NCBI GenBank assembly: GCA_964587105.1
Contig: CAZPKG010000004.1
Location: 153,443-217,442, forward strand
Length of the DNA stretch: 64,000 nt
Source: an uncultured Alphaproteobacteria bacterium
GTDB lineage: Bacteria; Electryoneota; RPQS01
Direction: 5' to 3'
Notes under the pieces: model-generated
Seen by the model: the letters and a program-made list of their open reading frames with translations, nothing else
The model's database searches: none
What the model was told of the DNA's origin: nothing
Shown here: one piece after another, positions 13,244-43,521 of the stretch
Numbering within the stretch: the first letter of the stretch is position 1
How the letters are laid out: each line of letters starts with the position of its first letter
Position numbers and translations under genes: made by a program

Positions 13244-13744
13244 ACAACACCATATATATGACAAAGTCACTGAACAGCATAACACAGCGTTCCGTTCAAC
13301 GTAGAACGTAATGCGATGATTGCAGAAATGCAATGGTTGTCAGCTTGGAAAAGCAGCAAATAAAAGGGTAAAAAAAGTATGTCATAAAAAAGTGTGAAGC
13401 ATTCTTCACACCATTGAACGGCAAGCGCACCAAACTCTAATATCGAAAATTCACCAAACGCTGTCAAAGAATCGAATTGACCTGAATGTCTCGACGCTAC
13501 GAGATCAAATTGTTGACATATTCCGCGAGAGGCATGCTCGAATCCACTCCGAAAAGTGTTCCAGCACGCCGCGCAAGATCTGTCGAAATAAATGAAAAAT
13601 AGAATTTTACGTTTGCTGATAGAATGCTATGCGGCAAAATCAGATGCAAATAACAATAGCGCGGCTCTTGCGTTTGGATGAGTCGCGCCCTACATTTAAG
13701 AAATGGCCTTGGTATGCCGCCACCGATGAGAAACCGGAGGTACT

Positions 13745-18880: not shown

Positions 18881-19345
18881 CTAAGCCTGCCGTTTCGATC
18901 TCTTTTTTACTGCGGTTTCAAGCAGGCTATTTCGTTGTTCTTCGCGCATCGCGGATAGATCCGCGATGGACGTCGATTTCAAGAAATCCTCGATTGCAGT
19001 TTTTGTTTTCTTCCAGTGCTTGTGGATGCAACAAGCCGTCTCATCACTGCACACACCGCAGCCGAGCAGGCAGTCTTTTGCAAGAGTCAGGCCGTCATAC
19101 AACAGAAAAATATCGTACAGCGAAATAGTCTCAGGCTTCTTAGCCAGTGCAAAACCTCCGCCCGGTCCGCGTGCGCCGGAAACAATTCCGTTTGCCGATA
19201 ATTCTCTTAAAAGTTTGGATAGAAATGGAGCAGGCAAATTTTCAGAATCCGCTATCACGGCTCCCAGCACCGGGCCGTTGGATTTGTTTTGCGCCAGATA
19301 AACTAACGCTCGAATTGCGTAACTCGTTTGCTTGGAAAAAATCAT
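18881..19345 (-). CDS. Rrf2-family transcriptional regulator (Cys-rich, probably Fe-S binding)
   Basis: MIFSKQTSYAIRAL...PAPFLSKLL...GARGPGGGFALAK; CLLGCGVCSDETACCIH. Confidence 0.9.
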   Translation of the reverse strand: MIFSKQTSYAIRALVYLAQNKSNGPVLGAVIADSENLPAPFLSKLLRELSANGIVSGARGPGGGFALAKKPETISLYDIFLLYDGLTLAKDCLLGCGVCSDETACCIHKHWKKTKTAIEDFLKSTSIADLSAMREEQRNSLLETAVKKRSKRQA

Positions 19346-19533
19346 CGGTCTCGAAATGCAATTGGAATACAACACAAAGTATGTTTGTCATACATATATA
19401 ATAGTGAATTAACCTGTCTATTGCCATTGAAGATCAACCACAATCGCGAATTTGCGGGAGTAGATGACTTAGCAGATCAGGAGCTGAGCATTACTGACGC
19501 CAGACCAAGAGTCCTCCTTAGGAAAAATAATTA

Positions 19534-19620: not shown

Positions 19621-19649
19621 TTGACAAAGGGCTAAACTCAAATTATATT
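19621..19649 (+). promoter_or_regulatory. sigma70-type promoter of the rrf2-moaA-nar operon
   Basis: TTGACA (19621-19626), 17-bp spacer, TATATT (19644-19649), 27 bp before ATG 19676. Confidence 0.7.
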
Positions 19650-19675: not shown

Positions 19676-20107
19676 ATGTTGTTTTCCAATTCAGCAGCAT
19701 ACGCAGTCCGCGCGCTTGTCTGGTTGGCCCGGCAACCCAAAGACAGCCGGTGGCTGGCGACAGATGTAGCCCGCATGGAGGGAATTCCACAACCTTATCT
19801 CAGTAAGGTTCTCGGAGTTCTTTCTTCGCAGGGCTTCATCTCTTCGACTCGCGGACCGAAGGGAGGGTACGTCCTCGTGCAGGCGCCGGACACGATAACT
19901 CTGCTGAAGGTTTCAGAACTGTTCGACTCCGAAAAACGACTTACCTCATGCGTCTTTGCATACACCGCCTGTGGACATTGCGAACATTGTCCGTTTGGTG
20001 AACTCTGGAACGGCACGCGCGACTCGATTCGTCATTTCCTCGAATCTACAACCATTGAAGCGCTTGCACGAATCAATGGAATCAACGAACAGACCTGTAA
20101 TGGTTGA
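19676..20107 (+). CDS. Rrf2-family transcriptional regulator, first gene of the nar operon
   Basis: MLFSNSAAYAVRAL...PQPYLSKVL...STRGPKGGY; CVFAYTACGHCEHCPF. Confidence 0.9.
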   Translation: MLFSNSAAYAVRALVWLARQPKDSRWLATDVARMEGIPQPYLSKVLGVLSSQGFISSTRGPKGGYVLVQAPDTITLLKVSELFDSEKRLTSCVFAYTACGHCEHCPFGELWNGTRDSIRHFLESTTIEALARINGINEQTCNG

Positions 20108-21149
20108 AAGCCCCTCATTGAAAACGTCAGATACAACGAATAGCGCTCAAGGTAGTCGCGACTCCCGCCTAATCGACCGTTTCGGAAGGGTTCATGATTA
20201 TCTAAGAATCTCCGTGACGGACCGCTGCAACTTGCGTTGCACCTACTGCATGCCCGCAGCCGGATTAAAGTGGAGGAGCACCGAGCACCTATTGAGCAAC
20301 GACGAGATAATGGCCGTCGCTAGTCTCATGGCTCAGATGGGTGTTCGCAAAATCCGTCTTACTGGGGGTGAGCCTACAACGCGAATCGATCTCGCTGAGC
20401 TTGTAGCACGGTTAAAAACAATTGAAGGAATAGAGACTGTTTCGCTGACCACGAACGGGGTCTTGTTTGCTCAGTATGCGCAGGCGCTGAAACAAGCTGG
20501 GTTGGACGGAGTAAACATCAGCTTGGACAGCTTAGATCGCGATAATTTCGCCAGAATTGCACGACGGGATATGTTGCCAAAGGTTCTCGCCTCAATCGAC
20601 GCGGCACTCGAATGCGCGTTCCTGCCTCTTAAAATCAATATGGTCGTCATGGCTGGAGTAAATGAGCATGAGATGCTTGACTTTGTCGAGCTGGCTCGCG
20701 CAAAACCCGTAAATGTGCGATTCATCGAGTATATGCCGTTCAAGGGAAACCAATGGGATCCCACAGGAGTCGTCTCCTACGCCGCCATGCGCGCCCGCAT
20801 CGATCAACAATATCCGCTGCACGCCATGCCCGAGACATATATTGAAAACCGCGTCGCGGAGGACTATATGATTCCTGGCTTTCAGGGCAAAATCAGTTTC
20901 ATTGCTTCGATGTCGCGCAGTTTTTGTGCAACGTGTTCACGCCTCAGATTAACCGCCGATGGCGCGCTTAAGGCCTGCCTTTTCTTTCCGGCACAAATAC
21001 AACTGCGTGAACACCTTCGGCGAGGAGCTTCGAATGTTGAACTCAAAGATTTGATTTCACTCGCAGTGCTTGGCAAACCTGAAGGCCATCCCGATCCGAG
21101 TGAACTAACTGCTCTGAATGATTTGAGCATGATTGAAATTGGAGGATAG
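20100..21149 (+). CDS. moaA: GTP 3',8-cyclase MoaA
   Basis: LRISVTDRCNLRCTYCMP radical-SAM motif; FCATCSRLRLTADG..KACLF; C-terminal MIEIGG. Start placed at the ATG overlapping the rrf2 stop. Confidence 0.95.
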   Translation: MVESPSLKTSDTTNSAQGSRDSRLIDRFGRVHDYLRISVTDRCNLRCTYCMPAAGLKWRSTEHLLSNDEIMAVASLMAQMGVRKIRLTGGEPTTRIDLAELVARLKTIEGIETVSLTTNGVLFAQYAQALKQAGLDGVNISLDSLDRDNFARIARRDMLPKVLASIDAALECAFLPLKINMVVMAGVNEHEMLDFVELARAKPVNVRFIEYMPFKGNQWDPTGVVSYAAMRARIDQQYPLHAMPETYIENRVAEDYMIPGFQGKISFIASMSRSFCATCSRLRLTADGALKACLFFPAQIQLREHLRRGASNVELKDLISLAVLGKPEGHPDPSELTALNDLSMIEIGG

Positions 21150-21152
21150 CAG

Positions 21153-21674
21153 ATGTCAGAAAATGTGATCCACTCTGAACATCAAACAGTCAACGGCCGC
21201 ATCGTCGCAATCTCGACAAGCGTCAAGCGGGGAATACCCAAATCGAATCAGAATGAAGTCCGCCTGATCGAGAACTGGGGAATGGAAAACGACGTGCACG
21301 CAGGGAATTGGCACCGGCAAATCAGCATTTTGGCTATGGAAAGCGTCCAGAAAATGCGCGACAAAGGTGTGCCTGTCCGCCCGGGAGCCTTTGCCGAAAA
21401 CCTTACGACGGAGTTTATAGACATTCCCAATTTGAGCATCGGAACTCTCGTTACAATCGGCGAATCAGAGTTGGAAATCACCCAGATCGGCAAGGAATGT
21501 CACCAGAAATGCGCAATATACTATCGCGCCGGAGATTGTGTAATGCCGCGTGAGGGAATCTTTGCGATCGTGAAAAAAGGCGGCGTCATTAAAGTGGGGG
21601 ATCCAGTCGTCGTCCACCTAACCCCGTTTGACAAATCAGCAATTCAAATGAGTGTCAGCGAGGCTGTGTCATGA
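21153..21674 (+). CDS. MOSC-domain protein
   Basis: GMENDVHAGNWHRQISIL, GAFAENLTT, LEITQIGKECH, MPREGIFA. Confidence 0.85.
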   Translation: MSENVIHSEHQTVNGRIVAISTSVKRGIPKSNQNEVRLIENWGMENDVHAGNWHRQISILAMESVQKMRDKGVPVRPGAFAENLTTEFIDIPNLSIGTLVTIGESELEITQIGKECHQKCAIYYRAGDCVMPREGIFAIVKKGGVIKVGDPVVVHLTPFDKSAIQMSVSEAVS

Positions 21675-22453
21675 CAAGGATTGTGATCGCAACATTAATC
21701 ATTTGCTTTTGCACGTTGACTCACGCCCGCGCACAATCGAGCGACTCACTTGCGAGCGCGGACACGACGATGCAAATCGACGTCCCCGCACAGGCCTTTG
21801 CGCAAAAGTGCGCAGGCTGCCACACGGTCGGCGGAGGCAAGCTAACCGGGCCGGACCTGTTGCCGACACAAGCTTGGCCGAGGCAAGAGCTTGCGGCAAA
21901 AGTGAAACTGATGGAACAACGTGTCGGACCTCTTTCGTCCGATGAAATCACTCAATATGTCGAGTTGCTGCAAGATTCACGCGCACAAGACCGCATTCGT
22001 GTTGCGCAAGAACTCGCCAGTAAAGCCGTTGCCGCTACGCTTGAACCTGCCTCGGCGAAGATTGGCAGGAATCTATTCGAGGGTGTAACACCGCTCGCAA
22101 ACGGCGGCGTCGCATGTATTACTTGTCATCGTGCAGGATCCCAAGGTGGAACTCTCGGCCCCGATCTCAGCGCCTTACATTCGCGCATGGGAAAAGTGGC
22201 AATGACATCCGCCATTCAACAAACGAACTTTCCGGTAATGTCGGGAACATACAAAAATAAACCTGTAACCGCACAAGAAGCTGTGCACATTGCCGAATAT
22301 CTCACAAATCCCGAGCTAATGCCGGCGGCGAGCATCGCCGACAACGCTCCGATCTTCGGCGCCTCACTCGGAGTGCTTAGCTTAATAATTGTAGTCGGAC
22401 TTTATCGTAACCGCTCGCGCAGCGGCCTTGCGCGCCAACGAGGTGTAGCATGA
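21671..22453 (+). CDS. Membrane-anchored periplasmic diheme cytochrome c (positionally like Thermus NarC)
   Basis: Signal peptide; CAGCH and CITCH, each followed by GPDL; C-terminal TM helix; overlaps the narG start. Confidence 0.85.
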
Positions 22454-25400
22454 GTTGGATCACCGATCTCTTCGATCCCAAGCAGCGCGAATGGGAAGAT
22501 TTCTACCGTAACCGTTGGTCTTATGACAAGATCATCCGCAGCACGCACGGTGTAAACTGCACAGGTGGATGCAGTTGGAATATCTATGTCAAGAATGGCA
22601 TCGTCACGTGGGAAATGCAGGCGTTGGACTATCCGATTATCGACAAGGATATTCCGCCCTACGAGCCGCGCGGCTGTCAACGCGGCATTTCCTATTCGTG
22701 GTACATTTACAGCCCGATCCGCGTCAAGTACCCATATGTACGAGGCGTGCTGATTGACCTGTGGCGCGAAGCCAAACTGCAATTCCCTGATGACCCCGTC
22801 GGTGCATGGAACTCAATAGTTTCAAATCCCGAATCGCGCGCGAAGTATCATTCCGCACGCGGTAAAGGCGGACTGCGGCGCTTCAGTTGGGACGAAGCGC
22901 TTGAATTGCTTGCCGCTGCGAATATTCACACCGTGATGAAGCACGGCCCCGATCGCATTGCAGGCTTTTCTCCAATTCCCGCGATGTCTATGGTCAGCTA
23001 CGCTGCCGGAGCGCGCTTCATGCAGCTCATGGGCGGCGTATCGCTTTCATTCTATGATTGGTATTGCGACTTGCCTCCGGCGTCTCCCGAAATTTGGGGG
23101 GAGCAAACCGACGTGGCGGAGAGCGCCGATTGGTTCAAGTCAAACTTCATCGCGGTTGTCGGATCAAACGTCTTGATGACACGCACTCCCGACGCACACT
23201 TTCTGGTGGAAGCACGGCATCGCGGCGCGAAAGTCGTTGTGTTCTCACCGGACTTCTCGATGGTGTCAAAAGTTTCTGACGAGTGGGTTCCCATTCATCA
23301 AGGGCAGGACTCTGCGTTTTGGATGTCGGTTGGCCACACAATCTTGCGCGAGAACTATGTTGAGCGCACGGTTCCGTTCTTCGTGGATTATCAAAAGCAA
23401 TACACGGACGGCCCGATTCTGGTTGAATTGCACAAACAGGCCGACGGCACATTCAGGCCCGGGCAATATCTGCGCGCAGCGCAGGTTGAAGAAACCAAGA
23501 GTGTAGACAATGCGCAATGGAAATTCTTCATGCTTGACTCGAAGAGTGGTGAGCTACGCTTACCGCAAGGCACAATCGGTCATCGCTGGCAAAAGAAGAA
23601 GGGTCAATGGAATCTAAAGCTTGAAGATGAGCGGACGGGCAATGCATTTGATCCGCGTTTGATGCTCGATCCAGCGCAAGATGAAAAGATTACGGTGTCA
23701 TTGCCGGAGTTTTCCTCCGAGCAGGGAGACGATTGGGTAAAGACGACTGTTCCCGCACGCAAAATCAAGACTGTGAGCGGCGACGTCTATGTCACAACGG
23801 CATTTGAACTGCTCATTGCAAGATACGGTGTCAATCGAGATGCCGCACACCCGACCCCGTATGACGAGCCGGATCAAGCATATACTCCTGCATGGCAAGA
23901 GAAATTCACCGGAGTCTCCGGCGACGTCGTGCTGCAGTTTGCGCGCGAATGGGCAATGACCGCTGAAAAGAGCGGCGGAAAGTGCAGTGTAATCATCGGC
24001 GCGGGCGTGAATCACTGGTATCACAATAATCTGATCTATCGCTCAATCATCTCAAGTTTAATGCTTTGCGGATGTGTCGGGAAGAATGGCGGCGGATTAA
24101 ATCACTACGTCGGTCAAGAAAAACTTGTGCCGCAGACGTCGTGGGCGCCCATTGCGTTCGGCACGGATTGGTCTGCACCGCCACGGTTGCAGAATACTCC
24201 GTCTTTTCACTATGTAAACTCCGATCAATGGCGTTACGATTCCAAGTTCGACGACATTTGCCCTGTGGCCGATCGTTCTCACAGCATGGCTCACGGCCAC
24301 ACCATTGACAAACAAATTCAAGCCGTGCGATCCGGCTGGCTTCCTTCCTATCCGCAGTTTGATCAGTCATCATTGGAAGTTGCAAAAGAAGCGCGAAACA
24401 GTGGCGCGACAGATGAGGCAACGATAGTCAAGAACGTCGTCGAGAGATTAAAAGCGAAGAAACTGAAATTCGCCGTAGAAGATCCCGATTCACCGAAGTG
24501 CTTCCCGCGGCTGTTCTACATTTGGCGCGGCAACGCACTTCTCTCTTCTGCAAAGGGCCACGAGTATTTCCTGAAACACTACTTGGGCACGCATACAAAT
24601 CTGATTGCGAAAGAGCAGGCCAAAGAGCACGTCGAAGAAGTAACGTGGCATGACAAAGTCGAACTCGGAAAGATGGACCTCGTGGTTGACTTGAATTACC
24701 GCATGGATTCATCCGCCCTCTATTCCGACGTCATTCTTCCCGCCGCGACCTACTACGAAAAGAACGATCTGAACTCAACGGATATGCACAGCTTCATACA
24801 TCCGTTGCAAGCGGCGGTCCCTGCATGTTGGGAATCGAAGAGTGACTGGGATATCTTCCGTGAAGTAGCGAAAGTAACGTCTAAACTTGCCGAACGATAT
24901 CTTCCCGATCCCGTTGAAGACGTTGTAACGGCTCCGCTCGCGCACGACACTCCCGCCGAAATCGCGCAGCCATCCGTCAAGGACTGGTCAAAGGGTGAAT
25001 GTGAGGCTATTCCCGGCAAGACGATGCCAAACATAAAAGTTGTCAAGCGAGACTACAAGAATGTTATCAACAAATTTATCAGTCTCGGACCCAACTTCCG
25101 CAATGGCCTTGGGATGCACGGCGTGCAATTTGAAGTTGCCGACATGTACGACGCTTACATGGAAAATAATCCGACCGAGAAGTGGGGCGGAGGAGTTTAT
25201 CCTTCATTGCGGGAGGACGTACTCGTATGTGAAGCGATTCTGAATTTTGCGCCGGAGACGAACGGCGAATTGGCTTATAGGTCATACCAATCCGAAGCCA
25301 TACGCACGGGTATGGATCATTCACATTCCGCCGAGAAAACGCGCTCGATTCGGATCACATTCGATGATATCGCCGCGCAACCCCGCCGTATCCTCACGAC

Positions 25401-26073
25401 TCCTTTCTGGACTGGAATCACAAGCGACAACCGAACATACTCCGCCTACTGCCAAAACGTCGAAGGACTCGTCCCGTGGCGCACGCTAAGCGGCAGACAG
25501 CACTACTATCTTGATCACGAATCCTATATCGCATACGGCGAGAACCTTCCCACATATAAGCCACGCCCAGTTCGCGAAATTCTTGGCGATTTGTCGCAAT
25601 CCAAGCCCTCAGGCGGAACACTTGTGCTAAATTATCTAACGCCGCACGGCAAATGGTCCATTCACTCGACCTATGGTGACACGTTAAGAATGCGCACGCT
25701 CAGTCGCGGCCACGACCCGATTTGGATAAACGACAAAGACGCGTTGCTGTTAGGAGTGGAAGACAACGACTGGGTTGAAATCTTCAACGATCATGGAGTC
25801 GTGTGCACGGTCGCCAACGTCAGCGCGAGAATTCCTCGCGGCATGTGTTTCATCTATCACTCGCCTGAGCGCACACTCGGAATTCCCAAGTCGCCCGAAC
25901 GTGGCTACCGTCGCGCAGGCGGGCACAACAGTTTAACGCGCGCGCGCCTGAAGCCGCTCTTTATGATTGGCGGCTACGGCCAATTTACCTATGCCTTCAA
26001 CTACTGGGGCCCGCCCGGAGTAAACCGCGACACGTTTGTAGCCGTTAAGAAACTCGAAAAAGTAATCTGGTGA
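22450..26073 (+). CDS. narG: Respiratory nitrate reductase alpha subunit (cytoplasm-facing, no Tat signal)
   Basis: [16 protein letters not shown]0 motif, [40 protein letters not shown]. Confidence 0.97.
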
Positions 26074-26082
26074 AGGTGAACA

Positions 26083-27576
26083 ATGGACATTAGAGCACAA
26101 GTTTCCATGGTATTTCACCTCGACAAATGCATCGGTTGTCACACGTGCAGTGTAGCCTGCAAAAATGTGTGGACGGACAGACCGGGTGCTGAGTACATGT
26201 GGTGGAACAACGTCGAAACAAAACCCGGTACAGGATTCCCGCATCGCTGGGAAGATCAGGAACGCTACAAAGGCGGTTGGAAACTAAACGGCGGCAAAAA
26301 TCTTCAGCTGAAATCGCAGTCCAAGCTCGGCGGCCTCCTTAAGCTCTTCTACAACCCAAATCAACCCGGTCTGGAAGACTATTACGAACCGTGGACCTAC
26401 GAGTACGAGAATTTGTTTGATGCACCGGCCGGCGATGATCAACCGACCGCCAAACCGGTCTCGCAAATCACCGGCGATGAAATGAAGATTGAGCGCGGCC
26501 CCAATTGGGATGACGACCTCTCCGGTTCGCCGCTGTATGCCGCAAACGACGTCAACTACGATCAACTTACACCTGAAGAGCGGCAACAGTTGTTTGAAAT
26601 TCAGCGCGTCGCATTTATGTATCTTCCGCGCATTTGTAACCATTGCGCGAACCCGAGCTGCGTCGCCTCCTGTCCGTCAGGAGCGCTCTACAAACGAGGT
26701 GAAGATGGAATTGTTCTGATAAACCAGGATGTCTGCCGTGGTTGGCGCGCCTGCATTTCCGCCTGTCCCTACAAAAAAATATACTACAATTGGGTGACTG
26801 GAAAATCAGAGAAGTGCATACTCTGTTATCCTCGACTCGAAACCGGTCAGGCTCCCGCCTGTTTCCACTCGTGCGTAGGCCGGATTCGCTATCTTGGAGT
26901 GCTTCTTTACGACGCGGATCGAATTGAATCCGCAATGAAAACAGCCGACCCGATGCTGGTGGAAGCGCAGCGCGATGTAATCTGCGATCCCGAAGACGAG
27001 TCCGTAATCGCTTCGGCGCGCGCCAACGGAGTCAGTGATGAAATGATTGAAGCTGCGCGCAAATCTCCGGTTTACAAATATGTCGTTAAGTGGAAACTCG
27101 CCCTGCCCCTTCACATTGAATACCGGACAATGCCGATGCTGTTCTATGTGCCGCCGCTTCTGCCTGTGATGGGAAAAGACGGCGACCAGCCGTATGATCA
27201 TGCCGAAGACGCATTCTTTACTTCACTCGACAAGTCCCGGCTTTCAATTAAGTACATGGCGCGGCTGTTCAGCGCCGGAAATGAAACGGTAGTGACGGCG
27301 TCACTGAAAAAACTCATGGCTGTTCGCTACTTTATGCGCATGAAGGAAGTGGGAGACGTGAATGATGACCGCGTGCGCCGCATCATGCGCGAAGCAGGAA
27401 CGACGCCGGAAGAGGCGGAAGAAATCTACATGCTAACCGCAGTGCCGACTGTGCACAAACGCTATGTACTTCCGCCGCTCCAGCGTGAAGAAGCGATTGG
27501 CTCCATGTGCGACGTGCAGGATTGTAAAGGCAGCTGCGGCTTCGGCGCCACATCCGGCGCAGAGAGGAGCGTGTGA
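26083..27576 (+). CDS. narH: Respiratory nitrate reductase beta subunit
   Basis: CIGCHTCSVAC, CNHCANPSCVASC, CRGWRACISACPY, CILCYPR...PACFHSCVG. Confidence 0.97.
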   Translation: MDIRAQVSMVFHLDKCIGCHTCSVACKNVWTDRPGAEYMWWNNVETKPGTGFPHRWEDQERYKGGWKLNGGKNLQLKSQSKLGGLLKLFYNPNQPGLEDYYEPWTYEYENLFDAPAGDDQPTAKPVSQITGDEMKIERGPNWDDDLSGSPLYAANDVNYDQLTPEERQQLFEIQRVAFMYLPRICNHCANPSCVASCPSGALYKRGEDGIVLINQDVCRGWRACISACPYKKIYYNWVTGKSEKCILCYPRLETGQAPACFHSCVGRIRYLGVLLYDADRIESAMKTADPMLVEAQRDVICDPEDESVIASARANGVSDEMIEAARKSPVYKYVVKWKLALPLHIEYRTMPMLFYVPPLLPVMGKDGDQPYDHAEDAFFTSLDKSRLSIKYMARLFSAGNETVVTASLKKLMAVRYFMRMKEVGDVNDDRVRRIMREAGTTPEEAEEIYMLTAVPTVHKRYVLPPLQREEAIGSMCDVQDCKGSCGFGATSGAERSV

Positions 27577-28112
27577 TGTCCGCCAGAAATCTCAACCTTG
27601 TATGTGACGAACTTGCCACACTGCTGAGTTACCCGGATTCCAACTACTATTCAATGCTTCAAAAAGCAGTCGAGTCTCCTTCAAGCAGAAAATCCGCCAA
27701 AGCTCTGAGGACGTTTCAAGAGTCAATTGCAAATTTATCCGAATCTGAGTTGCAAGAATTCTATTCAAGCACGTTCGATCTCAACCCGCTCTGTTCGCCC
27801 GCGTTGAGCGTTCACTTGTTCGGCGTGGAGAGTTTCAAACGTTCGCATCTTATGGTAGGCCTGTTAGACATGTATCGAGCCGCCGATTTCCAAACCGTTG
27901 GAGAAACCGCAGATCATATGAGCACGGTCGTGCGCTTCCTGTCGCATTCTTCATCTGAAGAGCGAGAAGAAATCGCTCAGTTTATCCTATTGCCCGGTCT
28001 GACAAAAATCGCCGAATTTCTGGAGTCAAAGTCAAACTCATTCTCTCATCTGGTGAAAGCAGCCGCAATGATAGTGGCAGCCGAAACAGGGAAGGAGGCA
28101 AAATATGCTTGA
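27576..28112 (+). CDS. narJ: Nitrate reductase molybdenum cofactor assembly chaperone
   Basis: LLSYPD, YSSTFDL, ETADHMS; position between narH and narI. Confidence 0.85.
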   Translation: MSARNLNLVCDELATLLSYPDSNYYSMLQKAVESPSSRKSAKALRTFQESIANLSESELQEFYSSTFDLNPLCSPALSVHLFGVESFKRSHLMVGLLDMYRAADFQTVGETADHMSTVVRFLSHSSSEEREEIAQFILLPGLTKIAEFLESKSNSFSHLVKAAAMIVAAETGKEAKYA

Positions 28113-29421
28113 ACTGTTTGCATTTGTCGGTCTGCCCTATGCCGCGATCATCATCTGTATTGTCGGAATTGTGTGGCGCTTCCGCAATGACCGCTACGGA
28201 ATTTCATCGCTGTCGTCGCAATTCCTCGAAAGCAAGAAACTATTGTGGGGTTCTGCGCCGTGGCATATCGGTATTCTTGTGATCTTCCTCGGCCACTTCG
28301 TCGCATTCCTTATTCCGGGAGTATGGCAACGGTTGATGGCTGTGCCGATGCTGTTGGCCATTGCAGAAACGACCGGAATCGCTGCGTCGGTGCTGTGTCT
28401 GTTGGGATTGCTTGTACTCTTCTATCGCAGAGTGACTACAGGCAGACTTCAAAGATCAACAAATATCGGTGACTTCGTCGTAACAGCCTTGCTGTTGGCG
28501 CAAGTAGCTCTGGGCTTAATGGTTGCAGGCGGCTATCGCTGGGGAGCAAGCTGGTCAACCGGAACTCTTTCGCCTTATGTTTGGAGTTTGTTGACACTCA
28601 ATCCGGACGTATCGGTTATTCGCGACATGCCCGTTGTCATTCAAGCTCACGTTGTGGGCGCTTGGTTGATCTTACTGGTGTTTCCATTCACGCGCCTGAT
28701 TCACATGGTATCTGTGCCGATGCAATATCTCTTTCGCTCGCCACAGAAAGTTGTCTGGAACAACCCTCGGCGCAACAATCAAGCCGCCGCCGCGCGGGTT
28801 ACTCAAGAATCGCGCCGTCATTTCATAAAGGCCGCTGTCGGGCTTAGTGCTGCCGGTCTATTATTGTCAGTCGGCGTCCTCGATAAATTGGGCCGGTTCT
28901 TCCAAATGCCGGGATTGCACAACGATGAAGAAGCGAACTTGCTCGAAACCCGTTTACGCCGTTTGCAATTGACCGCAGAAGAGAAGGAACTTGAACTCGA
29001 ACGGCTTCGCAGTGATCACATCTACGTCGCGAAACTGTCCGAATTGAACAACTCCGTCGGAAAATACTTCATTGACTACTCAATGCGTCCCGGTCTTGCC
29101 TTTCGCTCGGACGATGGCTGGCCCATGCTGCTATCCGCGAAATGTACGCATTTGGGTTGCACCGTCGGAAATCAAGTTGATGCGAACGGAAAAATCCTCT
29201 GCCCGTGTCATGTCTCCTATTTTGACATCAAGACCGGAATTCCCAATGAAGGCGCTCCTGCCAAGGCGCCCCTTGACAGAATCGCGTGGGTGTTGAAGGA
29301 TGACCAAGGAAATGAAGTCGCTACAGAAAGCCCTCGTGGTTCACGCACCGGAAGAGTGGACCCAGCGTTGGCGGACGGATATTCTTTGTTTATCGTTAGA
29401 TCTTTGTCGGCGGAGGCGTAA
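28105..29421 (+). CDS. narI: NarI (nitrate reductase gamma subunit) fused to a twin-arginine TM anchor and a Rieske [2Fe-2S] domain
   Basis: NarI His pairs WHIGILVIFLGH and QAHVVGAW...FTRLIH; SRRHFIK at residues 236-242 (28810-28830) then a hydrophobic helix; CTHLGC (29143-29160) and CPCH (29200-29211) in one uninterrupted ORF. Confidence 0.92.
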   Translation: MLELFAFVGLPYAAIIICIVGIVWRFRNDRYGISSLSSQFLESKKLLWGSAPWHIGILVIFLGHFVAFLIPGVWQRLMAVPMLLAIAETTGIAASVLCLLGLLVLFYRRVTTGRLQRSTNIGDFVVTALLLAQVALGLMVAGGYRWGASWSTGTLSPYVWSLLTLNPDVSVIRDMPVVIQAHVVGAWLILLVFPFTRLIHMVSVPMQYLFRSPQKVVWNNPRRNNQAAAARVTQESRRHFIKAAVGLSAAGLLLSVGVLDKLGRFFQMPGLHNDEEANLLETRLRRLQLTAEEKELELERLRSDHIYVAKLSELNNSVGKYFIDYSMRPGLAFRSDDGWPMLLSAKCTHLGCTVGNQVDANGKILCPCHVSYFDIKTGIPNEGAPAKAPLDRIAWVLKDDQGNEVATESPRGSRTGRVDPALADGYSLFIVRSLSAEA

Positions 29422-30518
29422 TGAAACAGCCATTCGTCAATTCAGTGATTGATTTTCTCGCATCCCGCTTGCCATTCCACAAGCTCGATGTCAAGCACAT
29501 GATCACGGAAAAAGAGGTGCCGGTCCACCGCATGTCGTGGGGGTATTACATCGGTGGGCTTGCACTGTTTTTCTTTATCATCCAAGTGTTTACCGGGATG
29601 ATGCTCTTATTCTACTATGAACCAACCGTCAGTGAAGCGCATGAGTCGGTCGAGTACATCACTCATTTCGTGACGATGGGCGGTTTGATTCGGAATCTTC
29701 ACGCCTGGTCGGCTTCGTTCATGATCTTCTGTGTCATCGCTCATATGCTCAGCGCCTTAGCGATGAAGGCCTTTGCAAAGCCGCGGGAAGTAACGTGGAT
29801 CGCAGGCGTACTGCTATTGCTGATCACTTTTGGCTTCGGCTTCACCGGCTATCTGCTTCCGTGGAATCAAATAGCAGTTAACGCGACAAAAGTAGGCTTG
29901 GCGTCAATCGATCAGGTTGGTCAATATCTTCCTGCCGCGCTCTCGCATCTTGCCGAAGATGTGCGCATCACAATTCAAGGTGCGCCTGCCATCGGGCAGG
30001 CAACACTAAGCAGGTTTTTCGCGCTTCACGTTGTCATTCTCCCGCTGCTCGTCTTTGGCGTCATCGGTTTGCATGTGCTGTCGGTACAAATGCATGGAAT
30101 GAGTCCCGGCATCGAGGATAAACCTCGCCGTAAAGAAAAATTCTTTCCGTTCTTTATTCTCAAGGACTTCAAAGAATGGGGGATTGCTTTTCTTGTCTTG
30201 TTCATCATAGCGCTCTGTCTGCCGTTTGATTCGCTCTTTCCGTATCCGTTGCTTGAACCGTATAATGCATTAGGATCGACTCCCGACGGAATTAAACCGG
30301 AGTGGTACTTCTACTTCGTTTACTATCCGATGGAACTGTTGCCGTTCTGGATCATCATCATCGTGATGACCTGTGCAACGCTTGGACTGTTCGCAGCGCC
30401 GTGGATTTTCAAAGGGTCAAGCCACAAGACAATGCGGTGGATCGCGTCGGCAATCGCCGCCTATCTGATTACCATGACTCTTTTCGGCGAAAACATCTAT
30501 CACGCAATCAAGGGGTAA
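29421..30518 (+). CDS. Cytochrome b of a bc-type (Rieske/cytb) complex, with b and subunit IV fused
   Basis: RNLHAWSAS...IAH, FTGYLLPWNQ, RFFALHVV...GLH, Qo-site motif KPEWYF. Confidence 0.9.
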   Translation: MKQPFVNSVIDFLASRLPFHKLDVKHMITEKEVPVHRMSWGYYIGGLALFFFIIQVFTGMMLLFYYEPTVSEAHESVEYITHFVTMGGLIRNLHAWSASFMIFCVIAHMLSALAMKAFAKPREVTWIAGVLLLLITFGFGFTGYLLPWNQIAVNATKVGLASIDQVGQYLPAALSHLAEDVRITIQGAPAIGQATLSRFFALHVVILPLLVFGVIGLHVLSVQMHGMSPGIEDKPRRKEKFFPFFILKDFKEWGIAFLVLFIIALCLPFDSLFPYPLLEPYNALGSTPDGIKPEWYFYFVYYPMELLPFWIIIIVMTCATLGLFAAPWIFKGSSHKTMRWIASAIAAYLITMTLFGENIYHAIKG

Positions 30519-30524
30519 ACTGAG

Positions 30525-31112
30525 ATGCATCGTAAACTCCTTCTAATGCTGATGATCCTGATAGCGGGCCGGTGCTTTGCCTATCCTGAGTTTCAAAAAT
30601 TCTCGCAAACAAATTCAGGTCGCCCCATCAACTGCGCAATGTGCCATGCCAACGGTGACGGCCCCGAAGGCGTGTCCCGCGGACAAATCGGAAGTTTGAC
30701 GCCAAGCGAGTTAAATAGGCTCAACGCCGCACGCGGCGCGTTCGCGCCCGGAATGGTCGTGGAAAACCCGATTCTCAACGCATTCGGGAATAACATTATT
30801 CATACGATCGGCAAAACGAAATTCCTTGAACTTCGCGCCCATCCTGAGCTTTTAGCGGATGTGTACGGGTTTCAAAGTGATTTGGACGAGGACGGAATTC
30901 CTGACGCCCGTGAATACTTGGAGGGCACACACCCTCTGAATAACGTACATGGTAACCCGCTCCGACTCTTTCTGCACAATCTGAATTTTTACAAACTCCA
31001 CGTAATCCTTACCGTTCTGGCCACGATTGCAGGCTTCTACGGTTTTAGTCATTTGCTGCACGGATTCGCCTCCGGCGCATCCGCGAAATTACCCCAAGAA
31101 CGAACATCCTAA
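30525..31112 (+). CDS. Membrane-anchored monoheme cytochrome c-like protein
   Basis: Signal peptide, CAMCH, DLDEDGIPDAREY Ca-binding-like motif, C-terminal TM helix. Confidence 0.7.
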   Translation: MHRKLLLMLMILIAGRCFAYPEFQKFSQTNSGRPINCAMCHANGDGPEGVSRGQIGSLTPSELNRLNAARGAFAPGMVVENPILNAFGNNIIHTIGKTKFLELRAHPELLADVYGFQSDLDEDGIPDAREYLEGTHPLNNVHGNPLRLFLHNLNFYKLHVILTVLATIAGFYGFSHLLHGFASGASAKLPQERTS

Positions 31113-31130: not shown

Positions 31131-32651
31131 ATGCAAGATCGCAGACGCGCAATTCAAGTTCTGGTATTGAACACATTGGCATTTACCATCTGCTTCGCCG
31201 GATGGATGATGAACGGTGTGTTGATTACCTACCTTGTGGACAATGATATTTTCCGCTGGGACAAAGCCCAGATGGGTTGGTTAATCGGCATCCCCGTGTT
31301 AACCGGATCACTCATGCGATTGCCGGTCGGCGTGCTTACCGACAAGTACGGTGGCAGAAGAGTCTATACAATTCTGATGTTGGTCTCTGCGATTCCGATG
31401 TTCATGACCGGTTTCGCAAGTGAATACTATCAATTTGTATTTGCAAGCTTGGGATTCGGGCTGACCGGCGCCGCATTCGCCGTCGGGATAGCCTACACGT
31501 CGGTGTGGTTCCCCAAAGAGCGGCAAGGGACTGCGTTAGGGATTTTCGGTGTCGGAAATGCCGGTTCGGCCTTGACAAGCATGGGAGCGCCGTTCGTATT
31601 GAAGTGGTTGACCGACAACGGAGCGAATGTCGAAGGCTGGAGAACGCTTCCAAAAATCTACGCCGCCGCATTGGTAGCCATGTCGCTGATTTTCTACTTT
31701 CTGACCTACGAAAAAAAGATCGAACACTCCGCCGGACTCACGCTTCGGCAGCGCCTCGAACCATTGAAGTATGTGCGCGTCTGGCGGTTTGGGCTTTACT
31801 ATTTTCTTGTGTTCGGAGCGTTCGTGGCCTTGGCGCAGTGGTTGATTCCCTACTATGTAAACGTCTATACCATGAGCGTCGCCTCAGCGGGACTCATGGC
31901 TTCAATTTTCAGCTTGCCGTCTGGTTTGATTCGCGCTCTCGGAGGATGGATGTCCGACAAGTTCGGAGCTCGGCGGGTGATGTATTGGGTATTAGGGTCA
32001 TGCTTGGTGGGGTGCGCGCTGCTTTGTGTTCCACGTATGGATATTGAATCGCCCGGTTCAGGTGTTACGGCTGCACGAGCGGGAATCGTAACATTTGTAT
32101 CAGATACGTTGATTCGAGTCGATCAACGCGAGTATAAGACTCGCCCGGAGCCAGCCTCATGGCGGCAAAATCAAGACAACGCATTTCTCGTTTTTCCATC
32201 CGGAGAGTTTTGGCATAAGCCCGTCGTGAAAGAGGGCGACAAGGTCGTTAAGAAGCAACTACTCGCGCGCGGCGTCACACACCTCTTCTTTCAAGCCAAT
32301 ATCTGGATCTTCACCTTCTTAGTATTCATTGTCGGAATTATGATGGGAATCGGCAAAGCGGCAGTGTACCGGCACATCCCGGACTACTACCCCGAGCAGA
32401 TTGGCGTCGTTGGTGGAATCGTCGGCGTCGTCGGCGGCTTAGGTGGATTCTTCTGCCCGATTCTGTTTGGGTACATGCTCAAGTGGACGGGAATTTGGAC
32501 GACTCTCTGGATATTCCTCGGCGCTTTGTCATTCGTGTGTTTGATTTGGATGCATTTTGTCATCCAGAAGATGATGCATAAGAACGCGCCGACTTTGATG
32601 CGTCACATTGAAGATCGACACGATCACCCAATCGAAACCCATCCCGCCTAA
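31131..32651 (+). CDS. narK: NarK1-type nitrate/nitrite MFS transporter with an inserted soluble domain
   Basis: GSLMRLPVGVLTDKYGGRRV, QGTALGIFGVGN, GMGIGKAAVY-like nitrate signature, GGLGGFF. Confidence 0.9.
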   Translation: MQDRRRAIQVLVLNTLAFTICFAGWMMNGVLITYLVDNDIFRWDKAQMGWLIGIPVLTGSLMRLPVGVLTDKYGGRRVYTILMLVSAIPMFMTGFASEYYQFVFASLGFGLTGAAFAVGIAYTSVWFPKERQGTALGIFGVGNAGSALTSMGAPFVLKWLTDNGANVEGWRTLPKIYAAALVAMSLIFYFLTYEKKIEHSAGLTLRQRLEPLKYVRVWRFGLYYFLVFGAFVALAQWLIPYYVNVYTMSVASAGLMASIFSLPSGLIRALGGWMSDKFGARRVMYWVLGSCLVGCALLCVPRMDIESPGSGVTAARAGIVTFVSDTLIRVDQREYKTRPEPASWRQNQDNAFLVFPSGEFWHKPVVKEGDKVVKKQLLARGVTHLFFQANIWIFTFLVFIVGIMMGIGKAAVYRHIPDYYPEQIGVVGGIVGVVGGLGGFFCPILFGYMLKWTGIWTTLWIFLGALSFVCLIWMHFVIQKMMHKNAPTLMRHIEDRHDHPIETHPA

Positions 32652-32675: not shown

Positions 32676-34241
32676 ATGGCTCAAACATTAGTTCGTTGGA
32701 ACGTTGAAGACGATTCGTTTTGGGAAGGCGAAGGCAAGCGCACGGCCTACCGGAATCTTTGGATTTCGATACCCTGCCTTCTGTGCGGATTTGCGGTCTG
32801 GATGTATTGGTCAATTATCACGACAAAGATGCAGGAACTCGGATTCCAATTCGACCCGGACCCGGCCAAGAACAAAGCGATGCTCTACACGTTGATCTCG
32901 ATTGCCGGATTGACTGGCGCGACGCTGCGTATTCCAAATTCCTTCTTCGTGGCCTTAAGCGGAGGGCGAAACGTAATTGCAGTTACGACCGCCTTGCTCA
33001 TTTTGCCCGCGCTCGGTCTTGGCATGGCGCTTCATGCTCCCGGCACGTCGTACTCAACATTTGTTATTCTGTCGGCGCTGTCAGGAATCGGCGGCGGCGC
33101 CTTCGCTTCGTCGATGTCAAATATTAGTTTGTTCTTTCCTAAACGTGTTCAAGGCACTGCCCTGGGACTTAATGCCGGCTTAGGAAATCTCGGCGTCAGT
33201 GTCATGCAAGTTCTCTTGCCGTTCGTAATGACCTTTGGCATGTTTGGAGCATTTGGAGGGAGTGCATGGAAAACTGCCGCCGCAGTCGGCGCGCAGCCTG
33301 CAGGAACACAAGTATGGATTCAGAACGGGGGTTTTGTGTGGGTGCCGATCCTTGCAGTCCTTTCGATTCTTGCCTGGTTGCTCATGAACAATCTTGCCAT
33401 GCACGAAGTGGGCTCGTCTTCTTCGGCCATTGCCAAAATGCTCTATCTCACGCTACTCGGGTTTGCCGGATCGGCTCTGGGCTTATATCTTCTCGTGGCT
33501 CTCAAAGTAAACATGTGGATAGTCCTGCCGATCACGATCCTGATGACGCTCGCACTGATTCGTTACCTCGCGCCGGGTAAAATTCGGCAGAATTTGAGTA
33601 ATCAATTCGCGATCTTCAAAGAAAAGCATAACTGGGTAATGACTTGGCTCTACGTGATGACATTTGGCTCGTTCATCGGGTATTCCGCCGCGTTTCCCAA
33701 ACTTATCCAAGACGTGTTTGGTTCGCTTCCCGACGGCACGGCCAATCCGCACGCTCCTAATCCATTCGCATACGCCTGGCTCGGGCCGTTAGTTGGTTCG
33801 CTCATTCGCCCTGTCGGTGGTTGGCTGTCTGATAAGTTCGGTGGTGCGCGTGTCACACAATGGGACACGGTGATTATGATTGCCGCCGCACTCGGTGTTG
33901 CTTACAACATCAAGGCTGCCAGCAGTTCTCCGACTCCTGAAGCGTTCTTTGTCCCGTTCCTGTTGCTCTTTCTCCTCCTGTTTATTACAACAGGCATCGG
34001 TAACGGATCAACGTTCCGCATGATTCCCATAATCTTTGACTCCAAACTTGCCGGACCTGTGCTCGGTTGGACGTCGGCGATTGCGGCCTACGGCGCGTTT
34101 ATCATCCCCAAAGTATTCGGTGCTCAAATTCAAGCCGGACATCCCGAATACGCACTCTACGGATTTGCGCTTTACTATGTAAGCTGCCTGATCGTAAATT
34201 GGTGGTTCTATGCTCGCAAGAACGCCGAAATCAAGTGCTGA
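32676..34241 (+). CDS. narK: NarK2/NarU-type nitrate/nitrite MFS transporter
   Basis: WNVEDDSFW, RNLWISIP, GGGAFASSMSNISLFFPK, YVMTFGSFIG, GIGNGSTFRMIP. Confidence 0.92.
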   Translation: MAQTLVRWNVEDDSFWEGEGKRTAYRNLWISIPCLLCGFAVWMYWSIITTKMQELGFQFDPDPAKNKAMLYTLISIAGLTGATLRIPNSFFVALSGGRNVIAVTTALLILPALGLGMALHAPGTSYSTFVILSALSGIGGGAFASSMSNISLFFPKRVQGTALGLNAGLGNLGVSVMQVLLPFVMTFGMFGAFGGSAWKTAAAVGAQPAGTQVWIQNGGFVWVPILAVLSILAWLLMNNLAMHEVGSSSSAIAKMLYLTLLGFAGSALGLYLLVALKVNMWIVLPITILMTLALIRYLAPGKIRQNLSNQFAIFKEKHNWVMTWLYVMTFGSFIGYSAAFPKLIQDVFGSLPDGTANPHAPNPFAYAWLGPLVGSLIRPVGGWLSDKFGGARVTQWDTVIMIAAALGVAYNIKAASSSPTPEAFFVPFLLLFLLLFITTGIGNGSTFRMIPIIFDSKLAGPVLGWTSAIAAYGAFIIPKVFGAQIQAGHPEYALYGFALYYVSCLIVNWWFYARKNAEIKC

Positions 34242-34273: not shown

Positions 34274-34975
34274 ATGAGTATTTCACTTGAAACTCCTGTC
34301 GGCCAATTGGTCGTCGAAAAACCCAACCGCGCACACATCTTTCAGCGCTTTCAAATTGACTACTGCTGCGGCGGAGCGCAGCCACTGAGAGAGGCCTGCG
34401 CGTCAAAGAACGTGGATCCGCAAATTATCCTTGCAGAGATTTCAAATCAAGACGGCCGTGCAGATGTCAGCACGGAACCTGATTGGTCTAAGGCAACGAT
34501 GTCGGCGCTTGTCGAGAATATTCTGAATCAGCACCACGAATATCTCCGGAACGCGCTTCCGCATCTCGGCGAAATGGCGGAGAAGGTTTATCGTGTGCAT
34601 GGTGAGAACCATCCTGAACTGCTTACGATTCTGCAAGTCTTCTCCGGGCTGTTTCAGGAATTAGATTCGCACATGTATAAGGAAGAGAACATTTTGTTCC
34701 CAGCCATCAAGCGTATTGAGCAGGGATCGCTTCCCCGCGAAGCCGGAGCACAGCTGTTCGGCCCGGTCAGTGTCATGGAAGCTGAACACGAATCGGCGGG
34801 CAATGCTCTTAAACGGCTTCGTGAGTTGACCAACAATTATTCCCCACCCGATGGGGCTTGCAATACGTATCGTGGCCTATTCGCAGGTCTTGAGGAGCTT
34901 GAGCGCGACCTTCACTGGCACATTCACAAAGAGAACAATATCTTGTTCCCAAGAGCACTTGCCGGCGCCAATTGA
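34274..34975 (+). CDS. ric: Iron-sulfur cluster repair di-iron protein (Ric/YtfE/ScdA)
   Basis: IDYCCGG, HHEYLR, HMYKEENILFP, ACNTYR, HIHKENNILFP. Confidence 0.95.
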   Translation: MSISLETPVGQLVVEKPNRAHIFQRFQIDYCCGGAQPLREACASKNVDPQIILAEISNQDGRADVSTEPDWSKATMSALVENILNQHHEYLRNALPHLGEMAEKVYRVHGENHPELLTILQVFSGLFQELDSHMYKEENILFPAIKRIEQGSLPREAGAQLFGPVSVMEAEHESAGNALKRLRELTNNYSPPDGACNTYRGLFAGLEELERDLHWHIHKENNILFPRALAGAN

Positions 34976-37139: not shown

Positions 37140-37144
37140 GTACT

Positions 37145-37738
37145 TTAGCTTTCCTTGTCCAGGGCAATGTTTAGAACAAGAACATTTACTCCCGGTTCTC
37201 CAAGAAGTTCAAGCGAACGTGAATCTGTTGCGTCATCAATTAGTTGAAAGACGCGTTCTAATGAAATCTCACGTGTTTTCGCAACGCGGGGAGCTTGGAG
37301 TCTTGCATTCTCTATGCTAATATGAGGATCAAGTCCGCTTGCCGAAGCTGTGACTGCATCGGCGGGGATTGGGACGCCGTGCGGGACACCGTTCAGCTCG
37401 CGATAGGCCATGACACGTTGGGCTACTTGGTTAATCAGCGTTTGCGAAAGCGGCCCCAAGTTTGTGCCGCCAGATGAGGTCGCGTCGTATCCATTTCCAG
37501 CCGCGGATGGGCGCGAATGAAAGTAGCGAACATCAGTAAAAGACTGACCTATTAGTGAAGAGCCCACGACCATGCCGGATGAATTTGTGACTAAACTGCC
37601 GTTTGCTTGCGACGGAAAAAGCGCTTGCGCAATCCCCCACACAACCAACGGATAAACGCCGCACAAGATGACTGTAAGCAATATCGTCGCGAAGAGTGCG
37701 GGCCGTAGCTCTTGAAAAAGTACTTTCATTTTAGACAA
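37145..37738 (-). CDS. kdpC: K+-transporting ATPase subunit C
   Basis: [38 protein letters not shown]. Confidence 0.95.
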
Positions 37739-39755: not shown

Positions 39756-39758
39756 GGA

Positions 39759-41498: not shown

Positions 41499-41505
41499 TG
41501 TTGCC

Positions 41506-41589: not shown

Positions 41590-41591
41590 GT

Positions 41592-41675: not shown

Positions 41676-41693
41676 CTCTACACTTTATCTTTC

Positions 41694-43508: not shown

Positions 43509-43521
43509 GCTTTCCTTGTAT

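Follow-up and report, generated by a model that had tools for sequence, protein, structure and literature searches.

A NarI-Rieske fusion within a conserved seven-gene cassette: a candidate supercomplex of nitrate reductase and a cytochrome bc module

Where does a nitrate reductase that carries its own cytochrome bc module draw its electrons? The question is raised by a seven-gene cassette at positions 21671-31112 of a 64,000-nucleotide stretch of contig CAZPKG010000004.1 (assembly GCA_964587105.1), from an uncultured bacterium labeled Alphaproteobacteria. In this stretch, hereafter the window, the genes of a respiratory nitrate reductase (Nar) run without a break into those of a Rieske/cytochrome b/cytochrome c quinol oxidase, and the membrane subunit NarI and the Rieske iron-sulfur protein are a single polypeptide. 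Classical NarGHI yields 2 charges per two electrons, although the span between menaquinol (about -74 mV) and nitrate (+420 mV), roughly 0.5 V, permits about 4 and could thus pay for about twice as much; a Nar hard-wired to a bc module would close this gap. The evidence presented below suggests that the cassette may do so, with the bc module oxidizing the quinol and NarI receiving the electrons from c-type hemes.

The cassette and its NarI-Rieske fusion

The seven open reading frames (ORFs) are co-directional and uninterrupted, and every junction is either an overlap of 1-8 nt or a gap of 6-9 nt. Overlaps of 4 nt are seen between the MOSC-domain gene immediately upstream and the first cytochrome c gene, between the latter and narG, and between narH and narJ; narJ overlaps the fusion gene by 8 nt, which in turn overlaps the cytochrome b gene by 1 nt, and the remaining gaps are of 9 and 6 nt. 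Pfam and NCBIfam searches, together with inspection of the translations, yield the following order (TM, transmembrane):

21671-22453 (+): NarC-type diheme cytochrome c, 260 amino acids (aa), with heme motifs CAGCH and CITCH, a signal peptide, and a C-terminal TM helix
22450-26073 (+): NarG, catalytic subunit with molybdenum-bis(molybdopterin guanine dinucleotide) cofactor (TIGR01580, 1513 bits against a cut-off of 1084)
26083-27576 (+): NarH, four-cluster iron-sulfur subunit (TIGR01660, 640 against 524; PF13247 and PF14711)
27573-28112 (+): NarJ chaperone (PF02613, E 1.2e-10; TIGR00684 at 42.9, below its cut-off of 59.35)
28105-28779 (+): NarI domain of the fusion, residues 1 to about 225 (PF02665, E 1.2e-63; TIGR00351, 125 against 105.6)
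28780-29421 (+): C-terminal half of the fusion, with a twin-arginine (RR) motif, a sixth TM helix, a helical arm, and a Rieske [2Fe-2S] domain (PF00355)
29421-30518 (+): cytochrome b of the fused b6 plus subunit IV type, 365 aa, about seven TM helices (PF00033, PF13631, PF00032)
30525-31112 (+): monoheme cytochrome c, 195 aa, with a signal peptide, a heme domain bearing CAMCH, an EF-hand-like loop, and a C-terminal TM anchor

This gene content, including the fusion, had been proposed in an earlier note made from the letters of the window, and it is borne out, with all seven genes on the forward strand where that note had placed them.

The fusion is encoded by one continuous 438-aa ORF (28105-29421, +), in which the Nitrate_red_gam domain spans residues 5-218 and the Rieske domain residues 307-388. 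The first part has the five TM helices and two b hemes of NarI, and its four heme ligands, H54, H64, H182, and H200, are invariant, as the earlier note had read them; in an AlphaFold2 (AF2) model this part matches Escherichia coli NarI (1q16_C) with a TMt of 0.79. Next come, within residues 236-260, SRRHFIK, a motif resembling the signals of twin-arginine translocation (Tat), with R237 and R238 at its core, and a sixth TM helix. The RR motif thus stands directly before the last TM helix, SRRHFIKAAVGL, with a weak match to PF10518 at residues 236-253. R238 is invariant, and R237 is Arg in 85 of 86 sequences and Lys in one. A charged helical arm of 30 residues (273-302), which is retained in the homologs and agrees with the AF2 secondary structure, leads to the Rieske domain proper. 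In this small domain, whose best PDB sequence match is 9rk3_A (E 4.5e-10), the CTHLGC...CPCH signature is complete, and C347, H349, C352, C366, C368, and H369, the disulfide cysteines included, are invariant in the 86 sequences.

Because NarI ends in the cytoplasm and is followed by the RR motif and a further helix, the Rieske domain can be placed on the P (periplasmic) side of the membrane, where it would be able to serve the Qo site of cytochrome b. We propose that the five NarI helices are inserted first and that the internal RR motif and the sixth helix then take the Rieske domain, already folded, across to the periplasm, as in proteins that depend on both the general secretory (Sec) and Tat routes. 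In the actinobacterial three-helix Rieske protein Sco3746, a twin-arginine motif has been described ahead of the final TM helix, with a cofactor-holding extracytoplasmic domain behind it (Tooke et al. 2017, PMC5449189). The fusion differs from it in having five helices beforehand, which form a complete diheme NarI. The NarI-Rieske family is absent from the dual Sec/Tat families listed by Tooke et al. 2017 (PMC5449189), and we regard it as a candidate new family of this kind with a 5+1 helix layout.

An artefact of assembly or gene calling can hardly be entertained as the source of the fusion. A search of 5.8 billion proteins recovered 664 relatives; the best 120, inspected as clusters at 90% identity, are nearly all of 422-452 aa (one has 479 aa), and all combine PF02665 with PF00355. 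These two-domain homologs of about the same length derive from NCBI, JGI, ENA, and Logan assemblies, and when each GTDB species was represented by one genome, at least 556 genomes proved to encode a relative. Conservation of the linker, in the form of the RR pair and the arm, points the same way as the continuous ORF. An assembly chimera, which the earlier note had named as a possible refutation, is rejected, with the fusion present in many independent assemblies together with the whole cassette.

In the partners of the fusion, too, the cofactor ligands are invariant. In the diheme cytochrome, a periplasmic domain between the signal peptide and the membrane anchor carries C47, C50, H51, and M81 for one heme and C149, C152, H153, and M190 for the other, all invariant in 55 homologs. 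NarG bears the FS0 motif (H-x3-C-x3-C) as HGVNCTGGC at residues 33-41, and its N-terminus is devoid of an RR motif. Since a Tat motif is wanting and NarK-type transporters are encoded next to the cassette, NarG is predicted to be cytoplasmic, in keeping with the orientation given in the earlier note. Relative to E. coli NarGHI (1Q16), the NarG, NarH, and NarI of the cassette likewise pass the equivalog models, and the four heme histidines of NarI are shared; the cassette differs in that it has neither an equivalent of NarI Lys86 nor the N-terminal tail of NarG, and in adding NarC, the Rieske domain, cytochrome b, and the monoheme cytochrome.

Cytochrome b retains H94, H108, H203, and H218 as well as P293-E294-W295 without exception in 79 homologs, and with Y296 counted in, the PEWY block (293-296) reaches a conservation of at least 97%. 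Its nearest PDB match is cytochrome b6 (1vf5_A, E 6e-44), with actinobacterial QcrB-like proteins at E 1e-16 to 1e-18, and on inspection the histidines of helix D are 14 residues apart, the b6-type spacing. The b6-like N-terminal half, the seven-helix layout of b6 plus subunit IV, and PEWY are shared with b6f and Bacillus-type bc complexes. Cytochrome b6f proper, with its split b6 and subunit IV, Cys35, and cytochrome f fold, is nevertheless distinct: in the cassette b6 and subunit IV are fused, an invariant Tyr43 occupies the Cys35 position, leaving no Cys for heme cn, and the accompanying cytochrome is all-alpha.

This last protein, the monoheme cytochrome, holds the "c1/f" position of the bc module. 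Its CAMCH is invariant in 77 homologs, and apart from the His of this motif there is no invariant Met or His. The mature protein would begin, straight after a predicted A-x-A signal peptidase site, with a near-invariant YPEFQ, and an EF-hand-like D119-x-D-x-D-G-x-x-D-x-x-E130 is invariant, so that it may bind Ca2+. Its signal peptide, N-terminally placed heme site, and C-terminal anchor are reminiscent of cytochrome f, and YPEFQ...GR-x-V-N-CAMCH resembles the cytochrome f N-terminus, YPIFAQQ...GRIVCANCH; by analogy, its heme may be ligated by the N-terminal amine as in cytochrome f. Homology with cytochrome f was considered and rejected: a profile search of PDB did not bring up cytochrome f, the AF2 model (pLDDT 91.6) is all-alpha, and Foldseek against PDB gave nothing better than E 4.8. 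The protein is not homologous to cytochrome c1 either. With no sequence or profile match in Pfam, NCBIfam, or PDB, the model points to an undescribed fold without a PDB relative. Taken together, the bc module has, to judge from these residues, the defining features of Rieske/cytochrome b complexes.

Because the Rieske domain is a C-terminal extension of NarI, NarGHI and the bc module would be forced into one complex. It is thus very likely that the seven genes specify one obligate membrane supercomplex, in which NarC-NarG-NarH-NarI is joined to a b6-like Rieske/cytochrome b/cytochrome c quinol oxidase; the covalently joined assembly advanced in the earlier note was a sound inference.

Spread, origin, and relation to known systems

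The cassette is conserved as a unit. When 85 related loci were searched with the proteins of the window and each gene was counted where the flank was long enough, the genes were present in the same order without exception: the NarC-like cytochrome in 61/61, NarG in 63/63, NarH in 73/73, NarJ in 80/80, cytochrome b in 78/78, and the monoheme cytochrome in 74/74. The same cassette is seen in the precomputed gene calls of five contigs with five taxon labels. Such an arrangement is far beyond chance, and the bc genes always adjoin nar, so the second refutation envisaged in the earlier note, bc genes not conserved beside nar, fails along with that of a chimera. One locus, on a Sumerlaeota contig (L005, 6223-7951), has a DUF6448 gene and about 1.7 kb between narG and narH in an otherwise intact cassette.

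The best 80 loci are all from metagenome-assembled genomes (MAGs) under about 15 taxon labels, some of which may carry binning errors (e.g., "Clostridia" and "Alphaproteobacteria"). Among these 80, Verrucomicrobiota account for 19, Obscuribacterales/Melainabacteria for 16, Hydrogenedentota for 10, Acidobacteriota for 6, Planctomycetota for 5, Bacteroidota and Myxococcota/Deltaproteobacteria for 3 each, Sumerlaeota and Omnitrophota for 2 each, and Gemmatimonadota, Nitrospiraceae, Eisenbacteria, and FCPU426 for 1 each; the other 10 have labels such as unclassified "bacterium," Proteobacteria, and Clostridia. Public annotations give the fusion as "respiratory nitrate reductase subunit gamma" and the monoheme cytochrome as "hypothetical protein." In open-access full text (PubMed Central and bioRxiv, with subscription literature outside this scope), we found no description of the NarI-Rieske fusion or of the cassette.

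The Nar half has a clear counterpart in Thermus. Among 72,556 plasmids, the only matches to the diheme cytochrome are on 13 Thermus thermophilus megaplasmids. On pTHTHE1601 the matching gene, for a c-type cytochrome, lies immediately before narG; it is the narC of narCGHJI, which is followed by a gene of the major facilitator superfamily (MFS); the operon is written narCGHJIKT for Thermus strain NAR1. No plasmid copy from a fused cassette was recovered in this search. In BLASTP comparisons with the Thermus proteins, NarC has 32% identity (E 1e-14), NarG 59%, and NarI 35%. The likeness to Thermus NarC noted earlier is therefore one of true homology, at the same position upstream of narG, and the cassette can be classified by its sequence with the NarC-containing (Thermus-type) nitrate reductases. 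In Thermus, NarC, a periplasmic diheme cytochrome bound to the membrane, is needed for the maturation of Nar; two-hybrid data point to its interaction with NarI, and it has been implicated in electron transfer to or from the periplasmic side (PMC7694296). The T. thermophilus NarCGHI system (narCGHJIK, on the NCE element or megaplasmids) shares with the cassette the order cytochrome c, narG, narH, narJ, narI, and MFS gene, a homologous diheme cytochrome anchored at its C-terminus, an equally short NarG N-terminus without a Tat motif, and the LLE-TG motif of NarI. It differs in that its NarI, of 229 aa, stops behind helix 5 and has an Arg at the position of E. coli K86, and in that the operon is without genes for a Rieske protein, a cytochrome b, or the monoheme cytochrome.

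The bc half also has relatives of its own. With the linker-plus-Rieske region as query, 1.84 billion cluster representatives yielded only 15 clusters below 1e-30, and these include unfused Rieske proteins of 224-229 aa with the same layout of RR motif, TM helix, helical arm, and Rieske domain. Their genes stand in the order small cytochrome c, Rieske, cytochrome b, and odd cytochrome c, with no nar genes nearby on the contigs. Two such loci (L087, 7815-12356; L089, 9576-11897) consist of one or two small monoheme cytochromes c, a Rieske protein of 224-227 aa, a 370-aa cytochrome b, and a 190-aa YPEF-type cytochrome; in L087 a 460-aa ORF, for which no Pfam match is on record, stands before the module. 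The stand-alone and cassette versions are 49% identical in the Rieske protein, 59% in cytochrome b, and 43% in the odd cytochrome c of about 190 aa. The stand-alone module looks like an undescribed variant of complex III in its own right. From the NarC homology and the existence of this unfused module elsewhere it follows that the cassette is a Thermus-type NarCGHJI to which an already existing bc module has been attached, the point of attachment being the C-terminus of NarI.

Other systems approach this combination by different means. In haloarchaea, narGH is accompanied by genes for a Rieske protein and a cytochrome b, whose products have been proposed to deliver electrons from quinol to Nar in a Q-cycle-type process (PMC3509893). 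That system (pNarGH, NarB/NarC) has an exported, outside-facing NarG, in contrast to the cytoplasmic one predicted here. Its genes are in the order Rieske, cytochrome b, hypothetical, NarG, and NarH, with the first two preceding narG and no NarI described, and its intermediate carrier is a b-type cytochrome. The cassette is thus not of the haloarchaeal type with a Tat signal on NarG and NarI replaced: NarI is kept and fused, and the carriers are c-type. In Streptomyces coelicolor, Nar1 requires the bcc-aa3 supercomplex and is purified together with it (PMC7931247). The actinobacterial bcc-aa3 follows the same logic, in that a membrane-bound diheme cytochrome c bridges Rieske/cytochrome b to a terminal reductase, but the link is noncovalent, the main partner is an oxidase, and the cytochrome b of the cassette is b6-like rather than QcrB-like. 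In Caldithrix abyssi, Rieske/cytochrome b genes are found in a nap cluster, not in a nar cluster.

Quinol sites and the path of electrons

The earlier note took the fused NarI to be quinol-oxidizing, which would give the complex two quinol sites. This is unsupported as stated by an alignment of 120 fused NarI domains with 118 unfused Thermus-type NarI proteins and E. coli NarI. The discriminating column is that of E. coli Lys86, which we take to be a quinol-site residue adjacent to the pentachlorophenol Q-site of 1Y4Z. The titles of PDB entries record mutation of Lys86 in 1Y5I and 1Y5N and the pentachlorophenol Q-site in 1Y4Z. Arg occupies this column in 118/118 unfused proteins, whereas the 120 fused domains show a hydrophobic residue (A, V, L, F, or I) or, in one case, Thr; neither Lys nor Arg is found at this site in any of them, and the NarI of the window carries Leu83 at the equivalent position, 83. 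Where helix 3 begins on the periplasmic side, positions 75, 83, 86, and 87 do not vary among the unfused proteins of the redundancy-reduced sets but do so among the fused ones, as expected for a site freed from selection. The loss of the basic residue and the relaxed constraint around it argue for a single quinol site, Qo, that would feed Nar in series. The change from Arg to a hydrophobic residue at position 83 of NarI is a clean evolutionary marker, which makes the choice between a serial and a parallel organization directly testable.

On the parallel alternative, NarI would oxidize quinol for NarGH, while the bc module would separately feed periplasmic acceptors (nitrite, nitric oxide [NO], and N2O reductases or oxidases) through the monoheme cytochrome and NarC, the fusion merely enforcing co-assembly and stoichiometry. 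We consider this possible, if doubtful. His64 and Glu88, the latter near the distal heme, are invariant in the fused NarI along with the other heme ligands, the bc module occurs elsewhere without Nar beside small soluble-type cytochromes c, and NnrS, multiheme cytochrome, and RIC genes are found near a few cassettes. For Thermus, moreover, it has been proposed that NarC takes over from complex III in delivering electrons, here from Nar, to Nir and Nor in the periplasm (PMC7694296). Yet the residue pattern at the Q-site, with its strict division between fused and unfused proteins, is at odds with a NarI that oxidizes quinol, and so is genomic context with the proposed outlets. There are no nir, nor, nos, or nrf genes in the 64-kb window, and none emerged as a recurrent neighbor in the +/-10-kb flanks of 83 distinct loci, where ORFs were clustered by BLAST and representatives were searched against Pfam. 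The periplasmic nitrite, NO, and N2O acceptors suggested in the earlier note accordingly find no genomic support within these limits. The recurrent neighbors are instead NarK, Rrf2, molybdenum cofactor synthesis, and RIC genes, and with no linked downstream reductase the cassette looks self-contained. A parallel arrangement also leaves unexplained why a general-purpose bc module should be fused to NarI and always co-inherited with nar across about 15 taxon labels.

Several observations thus favor the serial design, to which we assign a probability of roughly 0.5: the Lys86 column differs as described between fused and unfused NarI, no nir, nor, or nos gene recurs in the window or the surveyed flanks, both c-type cytochromes are strictly retained, and the Qi-side motif of cytochrome b is identical in the stand-alone module and the cassette. 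The haloarchaeal clusters and Streptomyces Nar1 offer precedents for the supply of Nar by a bc complex. The path would run from quinol through Qo, Rieske, the c hemes, NarI, and NarGH to nitrate. Cytochrome b and the Rieske domain would together form Qo, the sole site of menaquinol oxidation. One electron would pass via Rieske, the monoheme cytochrome, and the diheme NarC to the distal and then the proximal heme of NarI, and on through the NarH clusters to the molybdenum of NarG, where nitrate would be reduced inside the cell. The other would return through hemes bL and bH to the Qi site, closing a Q cycle. The charge separation of the Q cycle would then be added to that of inward electron transfer through NarI, for a yield that by bookkeeping could reach about 4 charges per two electrons against 2 for classical NarGHI. 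The NarK-type transporters would bring in nitrate and remove nitrite, and the Rrf2 and RIC proteins would handle NO by-products.

The fate of the second electron bears on a further possibility, which was raised in the earlier note: electrons might be bifurcated at Qo such that the high-potential electron leaves by the c hemes for periplasmic acceptors, while the low-potential one passes from cytochrome b to the NarI hemes and nitrate, and not to Qi. The covalent tether, which puts NarI beside cytochrome b, and the loss of the quinol-site residue of NarI itself would both suit such a scheme. The Qi-side residues Q223, H225, and GMS are nonetheless invariant, and the motif SVQ(M/L)HGMS is the same in the cytochrome b of the cassette and in that of the stand-alone module, which has no NarI as partner. 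This fits an ordinary Q cycle, and the low-potential chain probably ends at Qi in both; nitrate, at +420 mV, in any case needs no low-potential electron. Bifurcation is therefore improbable.

Still less credit can be given to a reversal of the whole system, i.e., a cytoplasm-facing nitrite oxidoreductase from which electrons exit through NarI and NarC to cytochrome c, with the bc module driving reverse flow to quinone. The cytoplasmic nitrite oxidoreductase cluster of Nitrobacter is said to be very similar to Thermus narCGHJI, cytochrome c included (PMC7694296). NarG passes the narG equivalog model, though, and the neighbors (NarK-type, Rrf2, RIC, and molybdenum cofactor synthesis genes) are the set expected of a nitrate respiration operon. 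The taxa that bear the cassette (Verrucomicrobiota, Hydrogenedentota, Obscuribacterales, Planctomycetota, and others) are not known to oxidize nitrite.

A number of points weigh against the serial design and keep its probability where we have put it. We know of no system in which electron flow from c-type hemes into heme bD of NarI has been demonstrated; with potentials like those of E. coli this step would be uphill, and the membrane potential opposes it. The fused NarI could bind quinol through other residues, and the emphasis on Lys86 draws on its importance for quinol oxidation in E. coli, as reportedly established by Bertero et al. in 2005. The AF2 model of the fusion is of a single chain with a pTM of 0.48, which leaves the domain arrangement uncertain. 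There is no cultured host among the best 80 genomes, and the survey for nir, nor, and nos covered the window and the +/-10-kb flanks. Finally, the role proposed for Thermus NarC, as noted above, is that of an electron exit from Nar toward periplasmic Nir and Nor (PMC7694296).

With these reservations, we see an even chance that the cassette defines an undescribed class of nitrate respirasome, a "cytochrome c:nitrate oxidoreductase" whose NarI does not oxidize quinol, which gains about 4 rather than 2 charges per two electrons, and which spreads horizontally as a self-contained unit in at least 556 mostly uncultured species. If so, many environmental narG reads would represent an enzyme with energetics and inhibitor sensitivity unlike those of the textbook one, and the assumptions made about growth yield and inhibitors for environmental nitrate reducers may fail for a sizeable group, the cassette being common in MAGs labeled Verrucomicrobiota, Hydrogenedentota, Obscuribacterales, Planctomycetota, and Acidobacteriota. 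As a natural, covalently tethered respiratory supercomplex, it would also be well suited to structural work.

Flanking genes and other features of the window

The genes on either side of the cassette are as follows:

18881-19375 (-): Rrf2 gene, divergent, the second of two (PF02082)
19621-19649 (+): sigma-70-like promoter match upstream of the other Rrf2 gene, TTGACA-17-TATATT, 11/12, a consensus match only
19676-20107 (+): Rrf2-family regulator, an NsrR-like candidate (PF02082)
20133-21149 (+): MoaA, radical-SAM protein of molybdenum cofactor synthesis (PF04055 and PF06463)
21153-21674 (+): MOSC-domain protein (PF03473), syntenic in two related loci (L001 and L006)
31131-32651 and 32676-34241 (+): two NarK-family MFS nitrate/nitrite transporters (PF07690)
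34274-34975 (+): RIC/ScdA di-iron protein (PF04405 and PF01814)

The Rrf2 assignments have PF02082 E-values of 1.5e-30 and 3e-32. The likely start of MoaA is the ATG at 20133; the longest ORF begins at 19956. A 338-aa ortholog occupies the same position in L001. The NarK-type genes match TIGR00886 and NF011608 below their cut-offs. An Rrf2 gene neighbors the cassette in 24 related loci, the MFS pair flanks it in 51, and RIC/ScdA, a family annotated as repairing iron centers under NO stress, recurs in 15. The functional or transcription unit probably exceeds 21671-31112, extending from 19676, to include Rrf2, MoaA, and MOSC, as far as 34975, to include the NarK pair and RIC/ScdA. A divergent pair of Rrf2 genes fronts the nar cassette across an intergenic region of 300 bp, which holds the best promoter-like site; the pair may be a paired switch sensing NO and nitrite. 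The site at 19621-19649 is a possible candidate for the operon start. Promoter matches are in all no more numerous in the region than in a shuffled sequence, and the promoter/terminator scan adds little.

Farther from the cassette, the window encodes a 1666-aa gingipain-like C25 peptidase (13745-18745, +) with a propeptide, CarboxypepD_reg domains, and a C-terminal sorting domain of the type IX secretion system. A second protein with such a tail, an esterase, is encoded at 7391-8893. These proteins suggest a host from the FCB group, and with Calditrichaeota MAGs as the nearest named relatives, it is probably Calditrichota-like. The segment 12001-14000, which takes in part of a 568-aa ORF and the intergenic region before the C25 peptidase gene, has a strong AT skew of +0.20 and a low GC content of 0.48; the ORF itself (11627-13333, -) has no Pfam match. 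On the other side, a kdpABC operon (35508-44992, -) is accompanied by a truncated KdpD-like sensor, with KdpD N-terminal and Usp domains, that ends in a phosphotransferase system EIIA-2 domain, not in a histidine kinase. The sensor is followed by a PAS/HAMP histidine kinase, encoded separately, and by a sigma-54 response regulator, an unusual arrangement for the control of Kdp. Lastly, an 816-aa protein (53943-56393, -) combines an ice-binding-like beta-roll with Peptidase_S74, the endosialidase chaperone typical of phage tail spikes and fibers; GC content rises locally to 0.57 at 54001-56000, and the region at 53943-56393 may be a remnant of a prophage or tailocin.

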